This document shows, piece by piece, positions 6,439 to 38,004 of a stretch of 64,000 nt of DNA. This stretch comes from a phage. Position numbers and translations under genes: made by a program. Position 1 is the stretch's first letter, and the number at the start of each line of letters is the position of its first letter. Where the stretch lies: assembly GCA_025812035.1 (NCBI GenBank), contig GCA_025812035.1_4719.1, one strand, 5' to 3'. The notes under the pieces are model-generated. The model had not been told where the DNA came from and made no database searches. It was given only the letters and a program-made list of their open reading frames with translations.

Positions 6439-7545
6439 TTAACGAATCTGTGGGACGTTTCCGGTACGGAGCGCCTGGAGGATCGTCAGAAGATCGGAAC
6501 CCGAGGTTGACGAACTGTTTGATTTTTCCAGTTGTTTGAAGCTTACGGTGGTCCCTTGATCCAGACTGTGGAAATAGAAGGTCACCATCTCCTCAGCTTC
6601 GTCGATGATGATCAGTTGCATTGCAAGGGCTTCAGCCATGACTTTCTGGCGTGTATTGTAATCAGATAAACGACGTCCGATCTTACGCTCGATGGCTTCC
6701 TGGTTAGCCTTAGAGATGATATAGGTGGAGGCGATTGCTCCAGAAGAAGGGATCTTTGTGCTCGCTGCCGCTTTTGCAGCATTGATGCGCGCAGCATTCA
6801 CCGCTTTACGGATACCCTCTTTATCCATGCGTGAGATTCGTTTATGTTCACGAACCAAATCGCTAAGCAGGATCATATCACTCCAGAAAGATAGCTCACC
6901 GGCCATCATGCGATGCCAGCGTGCTCGCCAGGTGTTCTGTGGGCCACCGATTGCTAAAATCGATGCAAGCACTTCCGCTGGTGAACTTGCGATACGCATG
7001 CTGATGTTCAACGGCATTTTCATTGTTGCCTGACCGTCGGTCAGCGTCACCGTTAAGAACTTGCCGGTGACCGCGTTTGCATCTTTGTTCAGCAGTTCGA
7101 TCGCAGCGTCGCTGGCTCCAACATCGATGCTATTTTTTTGTTTCCCCTGCAGGTTGAATCCTTTGTCGTCAAGGAAAACAAGGCTTTTGCTATCCGCACT
7201 TTCCAGTGCTAATTTAACAGCCTTATCCATCAGGTTAGCGTTACGATTTGGGTTAACACGACCCAGCGTTTTATCTACACTGATGTTACCCACCTGCATG
7301 ATGGTGTTCAACGCCAGTAAATAGAACCCGGTATACATGTTTTCAGCGGTGCGCATGCAGTTGCCTAACGCATTGCGTGCGTCGCTATAATACAACTCAC
7401 GTTCAAAGATCAGCGGTGCGATAACGCGTGAAGGTTGTGAGAGTTCAACCAGCGAACCTGGTTGGATAAGTTTATTGACTTCGTAGACTTTAGCGATACC
7501 GGACGCAACAACGTTAACAGCGTCGGCAATTTCTGATGCTACCAT
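6439..7545 (-). CDS. Hypothetical protein, 368 aa (possible virion protein)
   Basis: Long ORF, ATG preceded by AAGGA; first gene of the minus-strand run; no recognisable motif. Confidence 0.6.
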   Translation of the reverse strand: MVASEIADAVNVVASGIAKVYEVNKLIQPGSLVELSQPSRVIAPLIFERELYYSDARNALGNCMRTAENMYTGFYLLALNTIMQVGNISVDKTLGRVNPNRNANLMDKAVKLALESADSKSLVFLDDKGFNLQGKQKNSIDVGASDAAIELLNKDANAVTGKFLTVTLTDGQATMKMPLNISMRIASSPAEVLASILAIGGPQNTWRARWHRMMAGELSFWSDMILLSDLVREHKRISRMDKEGIRKAVNAARINAAKAAASTKIPSSGAIASTYIISKANQEAIERKIGRRLSDYNTRQKVMAEALAMQLIIIDEAEEMVTFYFHSLDQGTTVSFKQLEKSNSSSTSGSDLLTILQALRTGNVPQIR

Positions 7546-7579
7546 ATTGAAATCCTTATTTACAAATAAAGGAAAGAAA

Positions 7580-8785
7580 ATGTCTAATTACTACGACCAA
7601 GCTATTCAAACCATTCAGGAGAATAATGCGTCGTTAACACCCGAAGCTGTGGAGGCAGCGGGTAACGCGGCGTTATTCACCGATTCGGATTGGGCAATAG
7701 CGCGGAAGAATATTCGTACCAGTGTCGGTCAAGGGACATACGAGGACAGTATCGCCAGACGGTATCGGAATGTGTCACCTATTCCGGGTAACAGCCCGAT
7801 TCCGATTAACCGCGATCATGCCGGTATTACCTTCTTCACACGACCTAATTTACATCTTACCGACGCGAACTTAAAACGAGATCGACGTTTGTGGTCGTTA
7901 CGCACGGATAACCCTAACAGCATTCAGGCTGTTGTCCGTGACTACTTGGACCCTGTGGGTGCCAGAAAGCGAAACCATCGAGGACGTGCCATCGTCGATG
8001 AGCGCAATCCATTCATAAGTATACTGACGGATAACCTGACGGATATCAGTGGTTTCAACGACATGGAAATGCAGGTCTATCAGGGTAAACCAGGATTACG
8101 CCAAGAAACCGTTGTGATGGCCGACGGTTCGGTGGATATGTTCCAGCCATATAACCTGAACGCGACGTTCAAGAACATCATGGGTAACCCCATCATGTTC
8201 CTTCATTATATTTGGTTAATTTACATCGCAGGTGTGCATAACGGTGAACTGACACCAAGCCCTCAGGCCATCGTTGATAATGAAATGGATTACTGGACAA
8301 GATGCTATCGCATCATCCTGGATCCGACCGGGATGTATGTTCGTTATATCTTCGCACCGACCGCGATGTTTCCTGTTGGGCTACCGATTGGTAATATGGC
8401 TAACTACAGCGTTGACAAACCCTTCACGCAAGATAACGAACGTATCACTATTCCATATCAAGCGGTTGGCAACAACGCGTTCGATGAGATTCTGAAGGAT
8501 GAATTCAATCGACTTGTCCTGATGTTCTATTACGGTGAGAACGATACCCGTACGTTCCTTGAAGATGAGGAGCTGGTACCTATCTCACCCTACGAGCGTC
8601 GAATCATGTCTTATCGTGTTGATATGTATCCGTTCATTCATCCGTTAACCTCAGAGCTTCTCTGGTTCGTACCCGCTGATGATTACAACGAATTCTATCT
8701 GGACCTTGAACCGTCAGCGTTACCACCGGATACGTTCAGTCGCGATCTTGTCCGTACCACCATTCCGCAAAATTACGAGGGATAA
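7580..8785 (+). CDS. Hypothetical protein, ~401 aa
   Basis: ORF track 7547..8785 begins at TTG; ATG at 7580 (MSNYYDQ) follows AAAGGAAAG. Divergent from the 6439..7545 gene with only ~35 nt between starts. Confidence 0.6.
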   Translation: MSNYYDQAIQTIQENNASLTPEAVEAAGNAALFTDSDWAIARKNIRTSVGQGTYEDSIARRYRNVSPIPGNSPIPINRDHAGITFFTRPNLHLTDANLKRDRRLWSLRTDNPNSIQAVVRDYLDPVGARKRNHRGRAIVDERNPFISILTDNLTDISGFNDMEMQVYQGKPGLRQETVVMADGSVDMFQPYNLNATFKNIMGNPIMFLHYIWLIYIAGVHNGELTPSPQAIVDNEMDYWTRCYRIILDPTGMYVRYIFAPTAMFPVGLPIGNMANYSVDKPFTQDNERITIPYQAVGNNAFDEILKDEFNRLVLMFYYGENDTRTFLEDEELVPISPYERRIMSYRVDMYPFIHPLTSELLWFVPADDYNEFYLDLEPSALPPDTFSRDLVRTTIPQNYEG

Positions 8786-30332: not shown

Positions 30333-31211
30333 TTAAACGTGGGTCAGGTCACCGTGACGTGAAACGAACTCTGATAACGCTCGGATTGCTTCTTTGGATT
30401 CTTCAGCCATCGGGAAGTTGACGGTAACAAGTTCTCGTAAGACAGGAATGATTTCATTGTCTTCGAGATCGGAAGCTAAGGCGAACGCGATCAGTTCTTG
30501 GGCGTATGCGTACGGTTGCTGGCGTAAAGCAGCAAGCTGATTCCGACACTGCGCTATCAGCAGGTCCAGCGGAACCGCTATCGTACCCCCTTCGTCAACA
30601 TATTGGCTGAATACCGGTGGGAATGCATCACTGATTACACGAATTCGTCTGCGAATGCGATCAGGGATCTGGATGTTTTCTTCATCGGCTACGTTTTCGC
30701 TATCTTTCTCCAGCTTCTTGGTCAGCACCTGCTGGATGCGTGGAAGCAGACTTGAATGCACGAAACTGATCAATGGGGTTACGTTAACAGCGTCGACGCC
30801 GTAAATATGTCGTGCGCATTCTGCTAACGCTTCAGCTGCGGTGTAGTCTTCGTCTTCAACGATAGCGAGTAGAAAATCGGTATCGTCATGTGTTTCCAGG
30901 TCTAATAACGTAGACGCTAACGCATGAAGATACTTCAGGCTATCCAGAGATAGTTGCCCTTCGTTAACTCGGATCCCGAAGGCAAGCAATTGTTGTTTAT
31001 AAAGTTCGATACACCCGTTTGTTAAAATGACATCTAATTCGTTTAAATCGTACTGTTCTCCAGCACCTGACAACATTGTACTACAAAACGTTTCCAGTTG
31101 CTCGCATTTAAAATCTTGGTATAAACGATACATGCAGTGCTGTAACAGCGTACGCCTTGTTTCAGGGATTTTACCTTCTAACAAAGCCAAGACGGAATCA
31201 ATCATATCCAC
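30333..31211 (-). CDS. Hypothetical protein, 292 aa
   Basis: Long ORF; first gene of a minus-strand run, divergent from the plus-strand island starting at 31302. Confidence 0.6.
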   Translation of the reverse strand: MDMIDSVLALLEGKIPETRRTLLQHCMYRLYQDFKCEQLETFCSTMLSGAGEQYDLNELDVILTNGCIELYKQQLLAFGIRVNEGQLSLDSLKYLHALASTLLDLETHDDTDFLLAIVEDEDYTAAEALAECARHIYGVDAVNVTPLISFVHSSLLPRIQQVLTKKLEKDSENVADEENIQIPDRIRRRIRVISDAFPPVFSQYVDEGGTIAVPLDLLIAQCRNQLAALRQQPYAYAQELIAFALASDLEDNEIIPVLRELVTVNFPMAEESKEAIRALSEFVSRHGDLTHV

Positions 31212-31301
31212 TCCGATGCGGTAAATGTCTACTAGCTCTCATAATCTATTGAAGAAACTACCGGCTGACGCCAACTTAGATCAATCAGGAGTAACCATCC
31301 C

Positions 31302-31775
31302 ATGCCAGTTTCATCCAAACCAAGAAAAAAATCAGTAGGAAAACCTAAAGCTCAGGAAACAACAGCAATTCGTTGGGACGAGTTACGCGAACCTATCGAA
31401 AACTGCGAATTGTTATTGAGCACCCTGGGTGCGGCTATTTACCAAGCAACGCAACCCTGCCGTTTACGATTAACCCAAAACAAGCGCGATGAGTTCGTTG
31501 CGTTATCAACAAGCACGAATAAAGATCTTACCGAACTTCAAACCGAATTGACGACGATCAAGAACTCCGTCACGCCGATGTACGGTAAAGAAGTTGATGA
31601 ACAAAGTATTCTGTTACAGTACAACTACGGGATGTCGTTAATGAACATCCTGGAACGCGCATCCGATATTCTACGTCCTGACGTCGCACGCCTGAGTCAA
31701 CTGCGTGTTGAAGGGATGGAGAACCAGATCCGATTCGCTAACAGTGTTAAATCTCAAGGAGCCACCGAAGCATGA
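31302..31775 (+). CDS. Hypothetical protein, 157 aa, basic N-terminus
   Basis: ATG after AGGAG; ATGA overlap with the next gene. Confidence 0.55.
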   Translation: MPVSSKPRKKSVGKPKAQETTAIRWDELREPIENCELLLSTLGAAIYQATQPCRLRLTQNKRDEFVALSTSTNKDLTELQTELTTIKNSVTPMYGKEVDEQSILLQYNYGMSLMNILERASDILRPDVARLSQLRVEGMENQIRFANSVKSQGATEA

Positions 31776-33418
31776 GCGAACAAGAAAAAGAAATTGTGAC
31801 GAGCCAGGAAGATAAGGTTGAGGTAACGGCTCAACCTGTTCATGAAGGTAATACTTCTACGCAGCAGGAAAGTAAAGAAGTTGCTGACGCTCCAGAAGCA
31901 ACCCATGAAGAAGAACCGTCACATCCGCCGCTGATCGATTTCTCAAAAGCAACGATACGTTTCCAGTGCGAAGATATTCGCCCTAAGAGCCCAAAGAAAA
32001 CGAAACGTCAACCGCTGCTATTACCGCTCTATTCTCCGCGTGTGCAGACGGAGTACTACGACGAGTATATTAACACAATTTTAGAGACTGTTCACGCTAT
32101 TGTCTCGAATCGTCAGAAACCGTCAGAAGAGCAATTAGAGCAGTTTAATAAAGCCGCAATACAAACAGCCGCTGAGCAGGAATACCGCCCGAATGGTCAA
32201 GCTCACGATCGAGCGCTGGAACGTAAGGGCAGTCAGTGGACCAACGTACCCGTAGACTCATCCGGCGTTGGTCGCGTTATTCCCGGCATTCCACAACCGA
32301 ACCATATTCCTGATGATGTTGAAGCACCACTGACAGGAACGGACGCGATCTATTTCGCTATCCGTAATACGAAATCAGGTGCACCTGCGGTAATGCCGTT
32401 ATGGCACAGCGGTATTAAGCTACAATTCAATCCACCGTCGAATGAACGTGTTGCGATTATGCATGAGCGTATTGCGCGCGATAAAATCCTGGGTGGGCGT
32501 GATAGTGCGGGGTTCCTGTTTTCGGCAACGTCGATTATCACCATGAAGCATGCGATCGAATTAGCATTAGAATGCTGTTACATGGCCAACGTGCCGAATC
32601 TGGACATTCAACGCCTGAAGGACATTATTCCGGTTACCGATGTTCCAGCGTTACTGTTAAACGTGTTGGTAACCATGTATCCGTACGGTTATCCTTACGT
32701 ACAAACCTGTTATCAGAATCCAGAAACATGCGATTATCGTGTTGAAGATATCGTAAGCTTTGCGAAGCTTTATCAAGTTGACAACAGCGCAATTACCAAA
32801 CGTATGCGACAGATCATGACCGAAGGTCCGGTCATGACAGATGAACTTTTGCGTGAGTATGCGAACGAGTTAGGTGAAACCAACTCCCGTACGCTGGATC
32901 TGTCCGACAACGGTTCTGTTATCATCGAACTTGAAGTACCGAAGATCTCACGACAAATCGCCATGGGTGAACGCTGGTTAAGCGATACACTGGAAGATCT
33001 ACGTGATATTCTGTCACGTCCGTCAATGACCGAAGAAGAGCGCGATCGTGTTATTCGTGAACGTCAGTTCTATAGCTGGATGCGCCAGTATGACGCGTGG
33101 ATCAAATCGATGCATGTGTCGGTAAACGGTACCATGCGTCGTGTAAGTGATGCGGATACGGCAACGGTATTAGCACAGCTTTCACGTGACAGCGACCTTC
33201 GTGAGCGCTATATTGACGGACTGATGCAATTCATCGGTGATTCAACCATTGCGCTTGCGGCAATGCCTGCCTGGAAATGTCCGAAATGCAATGCTGATAC
33301 CGCCGATAATCTACGCGACCAGAAATACTACGACCTGATTGCTTTGGATGTACCCCAGCTTTTTTTTACCCTAAACTCCGTCCAATCTCTGCGGGAGGGG
33401 ATGGACGCGGTATTCTAA
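31772..33418 (+). CDS. Hypothetical protein, 548 aa
   Basis: Long ORF; C-terminal CPKC pair; ends just after an 8-T run (~33360-33367) beyond which the -1 frame stays open into the next ORF. Confidence 0.6.
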   Translation: MSEQEKEIVTSQEDKVEVTAQPVHEGNTSTQQESKEVADAPEATHEEEPSHPPLIDFSKATIRFQCEDIRPKSPKKTKRQPLLLPLYSPRVQTEYYDEYINTILETVHAIVSNRQKPSEEQLEQFNKAAIQTAAEQEYRPNGQAHDRALERKGSQWTNVPVDSSGVGRVIPGIPQPNHIPDDVEAPLTGTDAIYFAIRNTKSGAPAVMPLWHSGIKLQFNPPSNERVAIMHERIARDKILGGRDSAGFLFSATSIITMKHAIELALECCYMANVPNLDIQRLKDIIPVTDVPALLLNVLVTMYPYGYPYVQTCYQNPETCDYRVEDIVSFAKLYQVDNSAITKRMRQIMTEGPVMTDELLREYANELGETNSRTLDLSDNGSVIIELEVPKISRQIAMGERWLSDTLEDLRDILSRPSMTEEERDRVIRERQFYSWMRQYDAWIKSMHVSVNGTMRRVSDADTATVLAQLSRDSDLRERYIDGLMQFIGDSTIALAAMPAWKCPKCNADTADNLRDQKYYDLIALDVPQLFFTLNSVQSLREGMDAVF

Positions 33419-33510
33419 TCGATCCGCGATATGGGTTACATGGCGGGCAACTTGTTCGTGACGATGAAAAAATCTGGCAGCTACTGTTAGCGCGTAAAGG
33501 CGACGGCGGC

Positions 33511-33840
33511 ATGAAGCTGAACATCGAAATGGGTATTGCGTACGATACCATGTTCGGTTTGTATGACCGCGTTAACGACTGGACACCGTTGAAATGGGTT
33601 GCCCAGCATCCTGCTGAAGACCCATGGGACAGATTAGGGATTAAACCCTTAATCGAGGATTACGTACGATTCGGTATTAAAGAGTTCATGTCGCTCGACG
33701 CATTTTTAAAAGCACCGTATCCTTATGCGCAAACGGTACTCAAGATCGCACAAGACGAGCTGCGGAAACGCAGTGCTGTATTGGACGACGATGAGGACAA
33801 GTTACGACGAGAAGAAGAACGTTTACGAAACGGAAGATAA
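33511..33840 (+). CDS. Hypothetical protein, 109 aa (possibly the downstream part of a frameshifted product)
   Basis: ORF; its frame is open upstream to ~33310, overlapping the 3' end of the 548-aa gene. Confidence 0.45.
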   Translation: MKLNIEMGIAYDTMFGLYDRVNDWTPLKWVAQHPAEDPWDRLGIKPLIEDYVRFGIKEFMSLDAFLKAPYPYAQTVLKIAQDELRKRSAVLDDDEDKLRREEERLRNGR

Positions 33841-33841
33841 A

Positions 33842-34351
33842 ATGGCGAGATTTACCAGTTTGATTGGGTTGGACATTTGGGAGACACCTGCTGACGTTAG
33901 GGTTATTCCCGTTAACACTGTCGGTGTGATGGGACGTGGTCTTGCGAAGCAGGCAGCCGAGCGTGTGCCCGGTCTTCTTGAAGCGTACCGTAAGCACTGC
34001 TCTGATGGATTTAAGGTGGGCGAAGTCGTATCGTATCAGCACGGCGAGAACGATCAGCTCACCTACGTACTGTTTCCATCGAAATCGGATTGGCGTGAAA
34101 AAACACGACGCGAGTATATCGTTAGCGGCTTACTGGCGTTAAAGGCGTGGTTATTGGAGCTTCAGTTCGAAAGAGATGGCTTCTCATACCGGAGTCCGGC
34201 TGAACCGTTGATCGTAGCGATTCCTCCTGTTGGTTCTGGTTGCGGTAATATCGGTTACGGGCAATCCGAAACAATCCAGCCTCAATGGGTACGCGCACAA
34301 ATCAAACAGTATCTTGCCACCGTACCGAACGTTCATTTCTACTTGTTCTAA
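33842..34351 (+). CDS. Macro-domain-like protein (ADP-ribose binding/processing fold), ~169 aa
   Basis: ORF track 33725..34351; start at MARFTSL after GGAAG and the upstream stop. VIPVNTVGVMGRGLAKQAAERVPG and IAIPPVGSGCGNIGYG resemble the two conserved macro-domain loops. Confidence 0.5.
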   Translation: MARFTSLIGLDIWETPADVRVIPVNTVGVMGRGLAKQAAERVPGLLEAYRKHCSDGFKVGEVVSYQHGENDQLTYVLFPSKSDWREKTRREYIVSGLLALKAWLLELQFERDGFSYRSPAEPLIVAIPPVGSGCGNIGYGQSETIQPQWVRAQIKQYLATVPNVHFYLF

Positions 34352-34367
34352 CGCAAAGGTAACATAA

Positions 34368-34399
34368 CCCTCCTCCAACCCGTAAGGGAAGGAGGAGGG
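34368..34399. terminator. GNRA-loop hairpin, family copy 4, between convergent genes
   Basis: Identical core to copy 3, between the plus macro-domain gene (ends 34351) and the minus gene ending 34417. Confidence 0.65.
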
Positions 34400-34416
34400 A
34401 ATATGCTGTTATGTTA

Positions 34417-34791
34417 TTAATGTTCGTTCCAAATGGCATCTTCCGGTGGGACGATAGGATCTTTCTTCGGCATTGACGGCACTTCATGACGATGCTTACG
34501 GAATTGCCTATCAATAACCTCACGAAGCCGGTACGCGTCAACCCACGTTGATTTATTGAATAACTCCAACGTCACGGTTAATCGCGTTCTTGACATTGAA
34601 TAGCTTTTCTTTGCAATCAAATCGGGATAATTCAGTTGAGCGAACCAGGCACGTATTTGCGCTTCGGTAAAAGCGATGCTGTAATAACTGAGTTTACCAT
34701 CATTAAAATCGTGCGCGTGGGTGTAACGTCCCGCATAACGCCAGACAAGATGCACATTCAGATCGATCCATGGTGGGGTGGTATCAGCCAT
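34417..34791 (-). CDS. Hypothetical protein, 124 aa
   Basis: ORF ending at the bidirectional hairpin ~34368-34399. Confidence 0.5.
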   Translation of the reverse strand: MADTTPPWIDLNVHLVWRYAGRYTHAHDFNDGKLSYYSIAFTEAQIRAWFAQLNYPDLIAKKSYSMSRTRLTVTLELFNKSTWVDAYRLREVIDRQFRKHRHEVPSMPKKDPIVPPEDAIWNEH

Positions 34792-34800
34792 GTGTTACCC

Positions 34801-35370
34801 TCAACGATTCTTCATCACTTTACCCAGGCTTTCGATATTATCCCAAAAGCGATTTTTACTTGGTGCGTCGCCAACGATAACCGACATCAAATCACGACGT
34901 TCGCGACTGATGATACCCTGCGATTTCCAGATCACCATCGTCCAACATGCAGCCAGAACGAACAGATGGTTAATACTCGGTTTGGTTTGTGCGATGAACG
35001 CAAGCCATGCCCAGATACCGGTGTATACTATCGTCACTAAAAAGAGAGAGATTGTTGCAACGACAACAACGAAGTTTTGGATGGCTGGCTGATTGGCATT
35101 ATCCTGAAAAGCGGTAAGATCGGGAAGATTACCTTCAACGGAACTCGTTTCATCGATTTCCAAGTCTTCGATTTCTTTTCGTGTGTCAGGAGCTAATCCA
35201 GCATCATCAAGATGCTTCTTTAACCGCTGAATACTTAATCGCTGACCAACAGGAATGCTGATGTTGTCGTAACTATTAAGCGCATCAACCAGGGAACGTC
35301 CGTCAACGAGAACCAAGCTCGCAGTACCCATCGTCTGCGGTTTTATTTTGTAAAGGTCTTTTACTTTCAT
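34801..35370 (-). CDS. Hypothetical membrane protein, 189 aa
   Basis: Two or three hydrophobic helices (VVVATISLFLVTIVYTGIWAWLAFIA, LFVLAACWTMVIW). Confidence 0.55.
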   Translation of the reverse strand: MKVKDLYKIKPQTMGTASLVLVDGRSLVDALNSYDNISIPVGQRLSIQRLKKHLDDAGLAPDTRKEIEDLEIDETSSVEGNLPDLTAFQDNANQPAIQNFVVVVATISLFLVTIVYTGIWAWLAFIAQTKPSINHLFVLAACWTMVIWKSQGIISRERRDLMSVIVGDAPSKNRFWDNIESLGKVMKNR

Positions 35371-35391: not shown

Positions 35392-38004
35392 TTATGCGTC
35401 CGGCGTAAAATCAAAAGGAACGTCCGTACGAATGATATCATAGCGTTTTCCTAAGAAATAGAACTCCTCGGGGACCTGACCGGGAACAATACTATCGCCG
35501 ATGAACTGCGGATATGCCCAGATGTACTGAGTGAGTCCTTCGAACATATCCAGGTTATTTGCGTGGTTACCCATGATACGTTTCCAAAGTTCGCGTTTAT
35601 ACGGTGTTTTAACATCGAACCCATAAAGCGGTGCAAGATCCACACCAGGCACAAATCCCAGGTAGTAGTGGATCTGACTGACCGGGAAACCAAGCGTATC
35701 TCGCGGAATGGTGATCGCTTGCTCAGCCTTGGTGACATGCGTCTCAATAATCCAGTCGTAGCACTCCGAATAGAACCGATCGAATTTCTCTGGATTATAC
35801 CACGCTTTGGGAAGATTCAATTTCTCCGTAAAATCGTTCGACATGATCGTCGGCAAGAAAGGAAGTATGCCCGTCTTTATTTGCGTGTATTTTGATTTTA
35901 CGCGATTTACCAGATTCCAACAAGCATAACCGAGCTGATCGTTACAGAACTCAACGTACAGATCGTAATCCCCTCCCGATAATGGATTATTAATATCACC
36001 GATATCAGCTGCGTATTTGTTGGGGTATCGTGTATTAAATGCCAGTTTGGTTTGGTAATCGTAAATGCACGGTTTATTGTTCTTCGTGTTAATCCACCAC
36101 CATGGCTCACCTACCTGCACGCAAATGTCCTGGACATGAGGATAGATAATATCAGCAAATGCTGTTAACACATCCCCTAACCACGCCATCGCATGTTGGT
36201 TACATGGAGACAACAACCAAGACGGTGGCGTATATCCGGTTGCTGCTATGTTTCCTTCCCAATCCTGCTGCGCCCACTCGAATGGACACGCTGTACTCAT
36301 CAATTCGTAACTTAAACTGATGGTGACAGAGAAATGGTGTTTTGCGGCGTATGCAGCAAAGGCTTCATGCCATGCAATACAGGGTGGATTTAGTACATCT
36401 GTGGTGTTCACCAGTAACTTACCCGCACTTGGTGTCCAGACAGTATCGTAGAAATGCGACATTCCGACATAGTGCACTAATTCATCCTGATAACCCGCAT
36501 ACACCAGGTTTTCAAATACACGCTCTGGCGTGATGTTGTAATGGTCATCATAAGCGGTTATTGCACGAAGCTCATGCGGTGTGCAACGGTGACGATTAAC
36601 CGTCATTTCCTGGTACACCCCATCGATAGGAAGAATCTCGATGGTTAAACCAAGATCGATCGGCGTTTCCAGATAGGTCGTTTCTGTAGCACCTTCTTTA
36701 TAATGTCGAGAACTCATGCTGAACATCAACGATGTTACCGATTCAAGTTCGATGGGTTCGTCAGCATAGAACCCCGCCATCGCATCGTTGAAATCGATCG
36801 TCACGGTCGCACTCGTACCGTCTTTAGAAACGTCGGTTGCATATCGGGTTAATGAGATATACTGGCGACTATCGTCTTTGTGAACGACGGTTAAAACCGG
36901 TGGGTTTTCAGTATCAGCAAAATTACGCTGGTCGCCAGTAAACGTGATCTTCGCTTTAAAGATCAAACCGAATAACGACGTCATGGGGGCATACGCAACG
37001 CAACCATGATCCAGTGTATCCGTTGTTCGCCATTCTATCCCGACCAACCCGTTAGCGGTATGACATCGCATATACGCGTTAAGTACCATGTCTTCACTGA
37101 CAACCGCGAAGTTCTCTGTTGACTGACCGTTGATAATCCAATACATCGGTTGCCAAAGATTACGAGTACCTTTTGCATAGCGGTAGGTTGGCGCGCCTTT
37201 TGGGTTGCCGTTATTAAGATGGAATACAGCAGTACCTTGGTAGTGATCGTTCGTATTAATCGGAACGCTGTAAGCGTCACCGATATCCGTACGTTCGACC
37301 TTAGCGACTGTTGCGTTTTCAAACAGTCCACGTAGCGTAGGAAGACCAATATCTTCAGGCGCGTTTTCTCGACGAATCGCATCCGCGATGCGATGGGCTA
37401 AGGCGGGGTAAATGACTTCACCTTGTTGCAGGTTCGCAAGCCCTGCGAAACGATCGGGGTCGATGCCAGCAATCAATAACTCGACATCACCCTTCGTTCT
37501 ATCGTCGCGGAGGTATTTCAGTCCAGTAAGATCGAGATGTCGAATTAACGACAACAGATCGTACTTACGGTTTTCAACAGTCAGTTCGAGATCACCTGCC
37601 CAAACCAAACTTCCCTCATCCGCCGCTACTCTAACGGATTGTCGGCCTGTGGTAGATGTTGTTGTCGTTTTATTTAATTGCTCTTGTAGGAAGTCGGTTG
37701 CGAGGTCAAAGGCAACGCCGTAACGGTCAGCGACGGCTTGCATGATTTCACGTAACTGGGTATCTTCTTCAATGATAATCTTGACAGGTATTCCCAAGAA
37801 CGCTTTAGTGAGGTCCCGCTTAACCATCGAGACGAATACGGATTTGTAATACCGGCTTCCATCTTTCCCTTTAAAAAGAATGGAAGTTGTTTCGGGTGAC
37901 GATAGAACACGTGCAAATTCAACATCGTCGAATGTAAGAGAAAGTCCGTTTTTCTCGTTGGTTAATCTTAATATTTCATTTTGCGCGGTTTCATGTAACT
38001 TCAT
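35392..38004 (-). CDS. Putative tail fibre / receptor-binding protein, 870 aa
   Basis: N-terminal ~100 aa (KRDLTKAFLGIPVKIIIEED...YGVAFDLATDFL) shared with the 44028 and 44712 proteins; unique long C-terminus; sits in the fibre cluster. Confidence 0.55.
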   Translation of the reverse strand: MKLHETAQNEILRLTNEKNGLSLTFDDVEFARVLSSPETTSILFKGKDGSRYYKSVFVSMVKRDLTKAFLGIPVKIIIEEDTQLREIMQAVADRYGVAFDLATDFLQEQLNKTTTTSTTGRQSVRVAADEGSLVWAGDLELTVENRKYDLLSLIRHLDLTGLKYLRDDRTKGDVELLIAGIDPDRFAGLANLQQGEVIYPALAHRIADAIRRENAPEDIGLPTLRGLFENATVAKVERTDIGDAYSVPINTNDHYQGTAVFHLNNGNPKGAPTYRYAKGTRNLWQPMYWIINGQSTENFAVVSEDMVLNAYMRCHTANGLVGIEWRTTDTLDHGCVAYAPMTSLFGLIFKAKITFTGDQRNFADTENPPVLTVVHKDDSRQYISLTRYATDVSKDGTSATVTIDFNDAMAGFYADEPIELESVTSLMFSMSSRHYKEGATETTYLETPIDLGLTIEILPIDGVYQEMTVNRHRCTPHELRAITAYDDHYNITPERVFENLVYAGYQDELVHYVGMSHFYDTVWTPSAGKLLVNTTDVLNPPCIAWHEAFAAYAAKHHFSVTISLSYELMSTACPFEWAQQDWEGNIAATGYTPPSWLLSPCNQHAMAWLGDVLTAFADIIYPHVQDICVQVGEPWWWINTKNNKPCIYDYQTKLAFNTRYPNKYAADIGDINNPLSGGDYDLYVEFCNDQLGYACWNLVNRVKSKYTQIKTGILPFLPTIMSNDFTEKLNLPKAWYNPEKFDRFYSECYDWIIETHVTKAEQAITIPRDTLGFPVSQIHYYLGFVPGVDLAPLYGFDVKTPYKRELWKRIMGNHANNLDMFEGLTQYIWAYPQFIGDSIVPGQVPEEFYFLGKRYDIIRTDVPFDFTPDA

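Follow-up and report, generated by a model that had tools for sequence, protein, structure and literature searches.

The closest described counterpart of the macrodomain considered in this work is AdfM (anti-DarT factor macro), the name given by Morgan et al. (Cell Rep 2026, PMC13309987) to gp104 of phage PhiKZ. PhiKZ AdfM strips ADP-ribose from DarT2-modified DNA in vitro, with the N23A mutant being impaired, and it relieves DarT2 toxicity in E. coli, while PhiKZ and PhiPA3 both need AdfM on DarTG2 hosts, where their deletion mutants lose 3-6 log of titre (PMC13309987). The family includes PhiKZ gp104, PhiPA3 gp108, Asesino gp217 and Goslar gp83; the PhiKZ, PhiPA3 and Asesino proteins are imported into the phage nucleus, and macrodomains are present in only about half of chimalliviruses (PMC13309987). 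The import depends on PicA, and its signal consists of folded surface residues and not of a motif. Here, we analysed positions 31,302 to 34,351 of a 64,000-nucleotide (nt) stretch of phage DNA (NCBI GenBank assembly GCA_025812035.1, contig GCA_025812035.1_4719.1; the whole stretch is referred to as the window), where four genes on the plus strand, numbered 1 to 4, end with a gene for a protein of this family.

Positions 31000-35000 share 90.6% nt identity with Escherichia phage vB_EcoM_Goslar, and the gene order here matches Goslar gp077-gp086; the source of the region can be assigned to a Goslar-like nucleus-forming jumbo phage (chimallivirus). Goslar itself is a nucleus-forming jumbo phage of the Chimalliviridae with a 237-kb genome and E. 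coli as the host. We are rather confident in the following joint picture: gene 4 would be AdfM, genes 1-3 a separate core block, and genes 2 and 3 would give two products by a -1 shift. The candidate conserved -1 frameshift is the most interesting thing in the interval, and the macrodomain part is ordinary. The features on which the argument is built are as follows (aa, amino acids; ORF, open reading frame):

31302..31775, plus strand: gene 1, 157 aa, the equivalent of Goslar gp080 (ORF; 98% identity to Goslar gp080)
31772..33418, plus strand: gene 2, 548 aa, Goslar gp081, PhiKZ gp77 family (phrog_4585 with E 9.6e-69; tblastn with PhiKZ gp77, E 1e-27)
33361..33367, plus strand: candidate -1 frameshift site T_TTT_TTT in the gene 2 frame (codon layout)
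33367..33840, plus strand: ORF of 157 codons in the -1 frame after the slip, which includes the annotated gene 3 (open frame)
33511..33840, plus strand: gene 3 as annotated, starting with ATG 33511, 109 aa, Goslar gp082 (ORF)
33842..34351, plus strand: gene 4, 169 aa, a single-domain macrodomain and orthologue of Goslar gp83 / AdfM (sequence, profile and fold matches)

A candidate -1 frameshift joining genes 2 and 3

The frame of gene 3 is open back to 33310, and ATG, GTG and TTG are all absent from it before 33511. Between the gene 2 stop and ATG 33511 lie 31 codons (92 nt, 33419-33510), where most of the changes relative to Goslar are synonymous; of the first seven codons past the stop, five differ from the lineage L010 at third positions only, and the peptide encoded upstream of 33511 can be aligned to the N-terminal regions of gene 3 homologues, including the motif GH..P.FG. 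In the gene 3 frame, the stretch 33419-33510 evolves under coding selection, without a canonical start; therefore, the annotated 109-aa gene 3 (Goslar gp082) is truncated at its N-terminus, and Goslar-type genomes have no start codon for this conserved N-terminal part.

An entry into this frame may be offered by the heptamer T_TTT_TTT, which is part of a T8 run (33360-33367) and codes for two invariant residues, F531 and F532, 18 codons ahead of the stop of gene 2. A slip at this place is predicted to add 157 residues to the first 532 of gene 2, giving a transframe product of 689 aa with the predicted junction peptide YYDLIALDVPQLFFYPK. Genes 2 and 3 most probably give two products, the 548-aa protein and the 689-aa fusion, of which the fusion would arise by the -1 shift at 33361-33367; the outcome would be a fixed ratio of a ~62 kDa protein and a ~78 kDa extended protein.

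The same layout was found in all 16 of the phage and metagenome loci compared: gene 3 occupies the -1 frame relative to gene 2, and this frame has no stop all the way from the Phe-Phe codons, which lie 13-19 codons ahead of the gene 2 stop, to the end of gene 3 (extension of 157-176 aa). The Phe-Phe pair keeps the spelling T_TTT_TTT or T_TTT_TTC even where the phage genome has 57-63% GC and TTC is otherwise the preferred codon. When IMG/VR was scanned, another 74 distinct loci were found, 39 of them with T_TTT_TTT and 28 with T_TTT_TTC (together T_TTT_TTY in 67/74), and 69 with a T run of at least 6. The first Phe codon is TTT in 72/74 loci, compared with 35% (308/886) of other Phe codons in the same genes, and the -1 ORF has 149-223 codons in 74/74 loci, while the median for the +1 frame, used as a control, is 6 codons. 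The base before the Phe codons of the heptamer, which is the wobble position of the preceding codon, is T after many different preceding codons. Judged by these patterns, we consider it likely that the gp77-family gene and the next small gene are joined by an unrecognised programmed -1 frameshift, or by RNA polymerase slippage on the same T run, at a site that appears conserved among nucleus-forming jumbo phages and related metagenomic sequences. Ribosomal rather than transcriptional slippage is the route which we favour, because the heptamer is in phase and T is conserved at the wobble position of varied codons.

Some points weigh against the frameshift. Transcriptional slippage on the T run is also possible, a few lineages have weaker sites (e.g., G_TTT_TTC or TTC_TTC), and a conserved downstream stimulatory structure is not convincing, with a consensus fold of -2.7 kcal/mol, no compensatory changes and other lineages being inconsistent. 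In Goslar-like sequences, a hairpin of 5-7 bp is possible 8-9 nt downstream, with z of about -2 to -2.8.

It seems unlikely, even if not negligibly so, that gene 3 is translated independently, either from ATG 33511 or, by re-initiation where gene 2 ends, from a near-cognate codon (the ATC of TAATC at 33418, or ATT at 33412), and that the T run is a mere by-product of the conserved Phe-Phe motif. This explanation draws on a usable gene 3 start in PhiPA3, Noxifer, LucasX and RP12, on an ATC overlapping the gene 2 stop in 5/6 Goslar-like loci (GTC in L010), and on no clear stimulatory RNA structure having been found, but it meets several difficulties: the TTT preference at the first Phe codon compared with the rest of the same genes, the T which precedes it after many different codons and leads to an in-phase X_XXY_YYZ in 67/74 loci, and the -1 frame that is open from the T run in 16/16 and 74/74 loci. 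In addition, conserved coding upstream of any start is seen in the window, Goslar, L012, L010, SNUABM_54, Xoo-sp14, PhiKZ and PhiPA3.

Two other candidate mechanisms were set aside. For a shift exactly at the gene 2 stop, the P-site codons (UUC, CUA, CUU, AUA) are not slippery, while a near-cognate ATC start over the stop (TAATC) was downgraded, as L010 has GTC there and the U-run was found.

The frameshift join is not annotated in the GenBank or RefSeq records examined. In PhiKZ (NC_004629 64000-82000, locus 7443-7903, minus strand), an unannotated gene 3 homologue in the -1 frame lies directly after gp77, and the annotated 80-aa PHIKZ076.4 (gp76.4) is a C-terminal fragment of this -1 ORF; similarly truncated annotations are present in pEa_SNUABM_54, Xoo-sp14 and FLC9. 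BLASTP of the annotated 109-aa gene 3 against PhiKZ gp76.4 gave no match, and the relation was seen once the full -1 frame was aligned. A separate observation concerns Xanthomonas phage RTH11 (locus ~2849-2855), which has T7 where its relative LucasX has T8, and as a result the annotated 627-aa "gene 2" of RTH11 runs into the third frame; either the homopolymer was misread in sequencing, or the slippery run truly varies in length.

No description of a gp77-family frameshift was found in the literature searched, which is not a proof of novelty. If true, the -1 frameshift means that a core gene pair needs to be re-annotated in all chimallivirus genomes examined (e.g., PhiKZ gp76.4), represents a widespread phage recoding event outside the tail-chaperone and capsid cases, and gives the first handle on the conserved gp77-family protein found in virion preparations. 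For this protein, the presence of two forms at a set ratio would suggest a structural or assembly role. Moreover, since the AdfM ATG begins 1 nt past the stop of the transframe ORF (which is the gene 3 stop), AdfM translation may be coupled to frameshifted ribosomes in Goslar-type phages.

The macrodomain gene and its relation to AdfM

An earlier note on this DNA, made from the sequence alone, had pointed to two glycine-rich loops in gene 4, VNTVGVMGRGLA and AIPPVGSGCGNIGYG, and had read them as a macrodomain. Both loops are present in the 169-aa translation, and they are not there by chance, because the Pfam Macro, PADLOC DarG and 5m31 matches are all significant. Pfam Macro (PF01661) matches the protein with 25.3 bits, which exceeds its gathering threshold of 22 (E 1.5e-5), and the PADLOC DarG model with E 1.3e-22. 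The match to the NCBIfam model antitoxin_DarG (NF048014; E 3.9e-23) covers the macro half of the model only, as the NCBIfam DarG match of 82.2 bits, compared with a cut-off of 250 bits, spans positions 7-146 of 338. Among PDB sequences searched with phmmer, the macrodomain of Thermus aquaticus DarG (5m31) was found with E 6e-15 and that of Mycobacterium tuberculosis DarG with E 7.5e-12.

The note had also proposed a structure comparison with DarG and had named the lack of a macro fold as the result that would overturn its reading; the comparison revealed a macro fold. The AlphaFold model of the 169-aa protein, built on an alignment of 14 sequences, has a predicted local distance difference test (pLDDT) score of 87.1 and a predicted template modelling (pTM) score of 0.85. 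The top Foldseek matches among those listed are 5m3e, 5m31, 5m3i and 7omu, all of them DarG or DarTG, with template modelling (TM) scores of 0.78-0.79 (query-normalised) and 0.86-0.88 (target-normalised) and a root-mean-square deviation (rmsd) of 2.0-2.5 Å; the runner-up group among the listed matches is TARG1, with Poa1p and viral macrodomains far weaker. A total of 197 PDB matches had E <= 0.001, and the best 50 of the 197 are macrodomains or designs on a macrodomain scaffold. N25 (33914-33916) and K81 (34082-34084) are the predicted catalytic residues of gene 4; they align to N23/K78 of PhiKZ gp104 and N22/K80 of T. aquaticus DarG2, and both are invariant across 14 homologues. The gene 4 protein is 95.9% identical to Goslar gp83.

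The start at 33842 agrees with the N-terminus of PhiKZ gp104 (MAEF vs MARF) and of most homologues, and on this comparison it is preferable to the longer start that RefSeq gives for Goslar gp083. The RefSeq version of gp083 (186 aa) overlaps gp082 by 50 nt (window equivalent 33791-33841), and its start is probably about 17 codons too long.

By its sequence, gene 4 is a Goslar-type copy of AdfM, and the anti-DarT role of AdfM is already published and not new. The earlier note had named two possible roles, of which reversal of DarT-type DNA ADP-ribosylation is the one that gains support, from the PhiKZ AdfM experiments, the identity with Goslar gp83, the kept residues and the fold. The activity, nuclear location and phenotype of gene 4 we infer from the experiments with PhiKZ and PhiPA3. 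To hypothesize, AdfM would be made in the cytoplasm and then imported into the phage nucleus, where it would hydrolyse the ADP-ribose that host DarT2 puts on thymines of single-stranded phage DNA, probably using the conserved Asn25 and Lys81, and removal of ADP-ribose would restore DNA replication and packaging on DarTG2 hosts.

This assignment also has points against it. Goslar gp83 enters the AdfM study as a homologue in an alignment figure only (PMC13309987). Identity of gene 4 to the tested enzyme, PhiKZ gp104, is only 31% (E 8e-25), and the Goslar-type protein has two lineage-specific insertions (approximately residues 108-122 and 137-146) with low model confidence. Substrate specificity goes beyond what can be read from a sequence, and TARG1, the next-best fold match, acts on proteins, mainly on protein-linked ADP-ribose.

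We also weighed the idea that the macrodomain acts on ADP-ribosylated protein or RNA and not on DNA, in the style of TARG1 or MacroD, by which it would either reverse other host ADP-ribosyltransferase toxins or tune the phage's own ADP-ribosylation. TARG1 follows DarG among the fold matches listed with E of about 1e-10 to 1e-9, and the catalytic lysine is reportedly common to TARG1 and DarG; however, the top sequence and fold matches are all DarG macrodomains, while the substrate of the orthologous PhiKZ enzyme is DarT2-modified DNA, and losing this enzyme has consequences only on DarTG2 hosts, so we regard a protein or RNA substrate as improbable. Even less probable, in our opinion, is the handling of free metabolites or signals derived from nicotinamide adenine dinucleotide (NAD), such as ADP-ribose-1''-phosphate, O-acetyl-ADP-ribose or the cyclic ADP-ribose isomers of the Thoeris type. 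For this second role named in the earlier note, no specific evidence in favour emerged: the Goslar record cites the CDD model Macro_Poa1p_like, PHROG 335 carries the label "phosphatase", some metagenomic homologues are named "O-acetyl-ADP-ribose deacetylase" and Poa1p structures match at E of about 2e-7, but these labels are generic automatic annotations, Poa1p is about seven orders of magnitude weaker than DarG with an rmsd of more than 5 Å, and the activity tested in the family is on DNA.

A Goslar-group jumbo phage of E. coli or Salmonella that carries AdfM is predicted to be resistant to DarTG2, and such a prediction is useful in judging host range and therapeutic use, although it contains no new principle. 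Stand-alone DarG-like macrodomains with 28-30% identity were also observed in ~76-kb E. coli phages that show no hint of a nucleus, as well as in several further genera; examples of the carriers are Escherichia phages Paul, vB_EcoP_DE5 and Bas91, and SPN3US-like Salmonella phages. Macro-type anti-DarT factors may therefore possibly not be restricted to chimalliviruses.

The conserved block of genes 1-3 and its surroundings

Genes 1-3 are a conserved chimallivirus core block (PhiKZ gp78, gp77 and gp76.4), and the macro gene is an attached accessory counter-defence gene. The block, which consists of a small gene, a gp77-like gene and a further small gene, is common to PhiKZ, PhiPA3, Noxifer, LucasX and others, and it is divergent from a gp79-like gene and the gene of a virion RNA polymerase beta-like subunit. 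The positional counterparts of gene 1 are PhiKZ gp78, PhiPA3 gp075, Noxifer gp074 and LucasX_93; in total, a gene holds this position in seven loci besides the one in the window. BLASTP of gene 1 against PhiKZ gp78 gave no match and hhalign against the PhiKZ gp78 group gave a weak one (E 0.004, probability 9%), so the relation of gene 1 to PhiKZ gp78 is put forward as positional equivalence only.

The 548-aa protein of gene 2, in which the earlier note had seen no recognisable motifs, turned out to be a member of a large and conserved family, which has 1311 cluster representatives and matches in 158 phage records from many host genera. The family has four invariant cysteines (C313, C320, C503 and C506, the C-terminal pair being CPKC), which are probably a zinc site, together with the conserved motifs PLWHSG and YPxGY. 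The profile searches that the note had suggested for this protein were successful in part, as they found phrog_4585 and, against PDB and Pfam, no credible relative of the gp77 family. A word-indexed homology search, profile included, returned six close relatives only, and the AlphaFold model, built on an alignment of 7 sequences, was unusable (pLDDT 35). According to Goslar Table S4 (doi 10.64898/2026.04.21.720040), gp081 is estimated at ~15-35 copies per virion, similar to the virion RNA polymerase subunit gp78. Goslar virion proteomics identified 24 peptides of gp081 and one peptide of gp082, while gp080 and gp083 were not found; the search covered annotated proteins only, and the preparation also held phage-nucleus fragments.

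Macro gene position varies relative to the block, and therefore the four genes do not appear to be a functional module. The distance between the two is 33-43 kb in PhiKZ, PhiPA3 and Noxifer (35 kb from gp77 to gp104 in PhiKZ), KpHz_2 has no gp77-like gene within 7 kb of its macro gene, and in LucasX the macro gene lies two genes downstream of the block, past a terminator. The macro gene is the fourth gene only in Goslar-like lineages (with three further lineages at ~50% identity), and in the Goslar lineage it would have been placed directly behind the conserved block. The idea of the earlier note that the four genes are functional partners was accordingly not borne out, as the block is conserved apart from the macro gene and unlinked to it in PhiKZ, PhiPA3 and Noxifer. 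That all four genes make up one counter-defence module, with the 548-aa and 157-aa proteins working with the macrodomain, is hardly credible: the genes are tightly packed (ATGA overlap, 1-nt gap), four Goslar-like lineages preserve the order of all four and the LucasX macro gene is only two genes away, but the macro gene is not near the block in PhiKZ, PhiPA3, Noxifer and KpHz_2, a terminator and another gene lie between them in LucasX, macrodomains are present in about half of chimalliviruses whereas the gp77 family is widespread, and PhiKZ AdfM is active by itself in E. coli and in vitro.

With respect to the layout, the ORF list contains the four co-oriented plus-strand ORFs that had been described (31302-31775, 31772-33418, 33511-33840 and 33842-34351), and minus-strand genes indeed lie on either side of the quartet. 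The word "island", which had also been used, fits the strand orientation only, since the region does not stand out from its flanks in base composition. The gene 1 stop and the gene 2 start overlap as ATGA. Two further features frame the four genes:

31287..31291, plus strand: Shine-Dalgarno-like AGGAG, 10 nt before the gene 1 ATG (read from the sequence)
34368..34399, no strand assigned: GC-rich hairpin separating the macro gene from the minus-strand gp084-like gene that converges on it (RNA fold)

The AGGAG site sits in a 90-nt divergent gap between the gp79-like gene (minus strand) and gene 1. A sigma-70-like promoter was not found in this gap upstream of gene 1, which is expected because the phage uses its own RNA polymerases; the scans for sigma-70 promoters and terminators gave counts under the shuffle expectation and were uninformative. 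The hairpin has a folding energy of -28.6 kcal/mol (z = -4.8, with 0/200 shuffles equally stable) and is probably a bidirectional terminator; a "terminator" feature is annotated in Goslar at the equivalent position.

Among the neighbours, a 212-aa minus-strand protein is the Goslar capsid decorator gp77, a 433-aa protein is the virion RNA polymerase subunit gp78 of Goslar, and an 870-aa protein is of the DUF7941 / non-contractile-tail-sheath type. The last of these (35392-38004, minus strand) carries DUF7941 (E 2.9e-41) together with non-contractile tail sheath N-terminal and TIM-barrel domains; according to a recent proposal, DUF7941 proteins make up a cloud of filaments on Goslar virions. 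Downstream of the macro gene, the neighbours on the minus strand had no significant Pfam or PHROG match, PADLOC gave no DarT match in the three genes upstream of the macro gene, and there are no tRNA genes in the window.

Comparison with known frameshifting, macrodomain and anti-DarT systems

The systems with which the candidate frameshift can be compared are the programmed -1 frameshifts of HIV-1 gag-pol (U_UUU_UUA), the phage tail chaperone G/GT, the T7 capsid 10A/10B and dnaX; U6A sites are established shift sites, as stated in PMC3458567 and PMC4373837. The likeness consists of an in-frame X_XXY_YYZ made of U near the end of the upstream ORF and of a conserved -1 ORF that is partly without its own start. 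Differences are the gene family (gp77-like), the conserved stimulatory hairpin or pseudoknot, which is not shown here, and the fusion being a prediction from the sequence.

Concerning the macrodomain, TARG1 / C6orf130 shares the fold of the same macrodomain subclass and is the second-best PDB group among the matches listed, and it differs in being eukaryotic and only 16-18% identical to gene 4. The Poa1p-like ADP-ribose-1''-phosphate phosphatase, which is the CDD label of Goslar, was considered as a candidate identity and rejected (E ~2e-7 and rmsd >5 Å for Poa1p vs 6e-14 and 2.0 Å for DarG). AdfN, a NADAR-domain anti-DarT1 factor, and AdfA and AdfB, which are direct DarT inhibitors, have the same role of countering DarTG, with other folds and mechanisms: AdfN reverses guanine ADP-ribosylation, whereas AdfA and AdfB bind the toxin. 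This separation is made on their descriptions.

The best sequence and fold matches of gene 4 belong to DarG2 (T. aquaticus 5M31/5M3E, M. tuberculosis 5M3I, Thermosipho DarTG 7OMU). Unlike DarG2, gene 4 has neither the C-terminal DarT-binding domain nor an adjacent darT gene; it is a phage counter-defence gene and not the antitoxin of a toxin-antitoxin pair. Compared with PhiKZ AdfM, whose gene lies in the gp103-gp105 region, the Goslar-type gene is found directly behind the gp77-like block and its protein has the two short lineage-specific insertions, while both are single macrodomains of ~160-170 aa, encoded by chimalliviruses, with the Asn and Lys of the DarG2 type.

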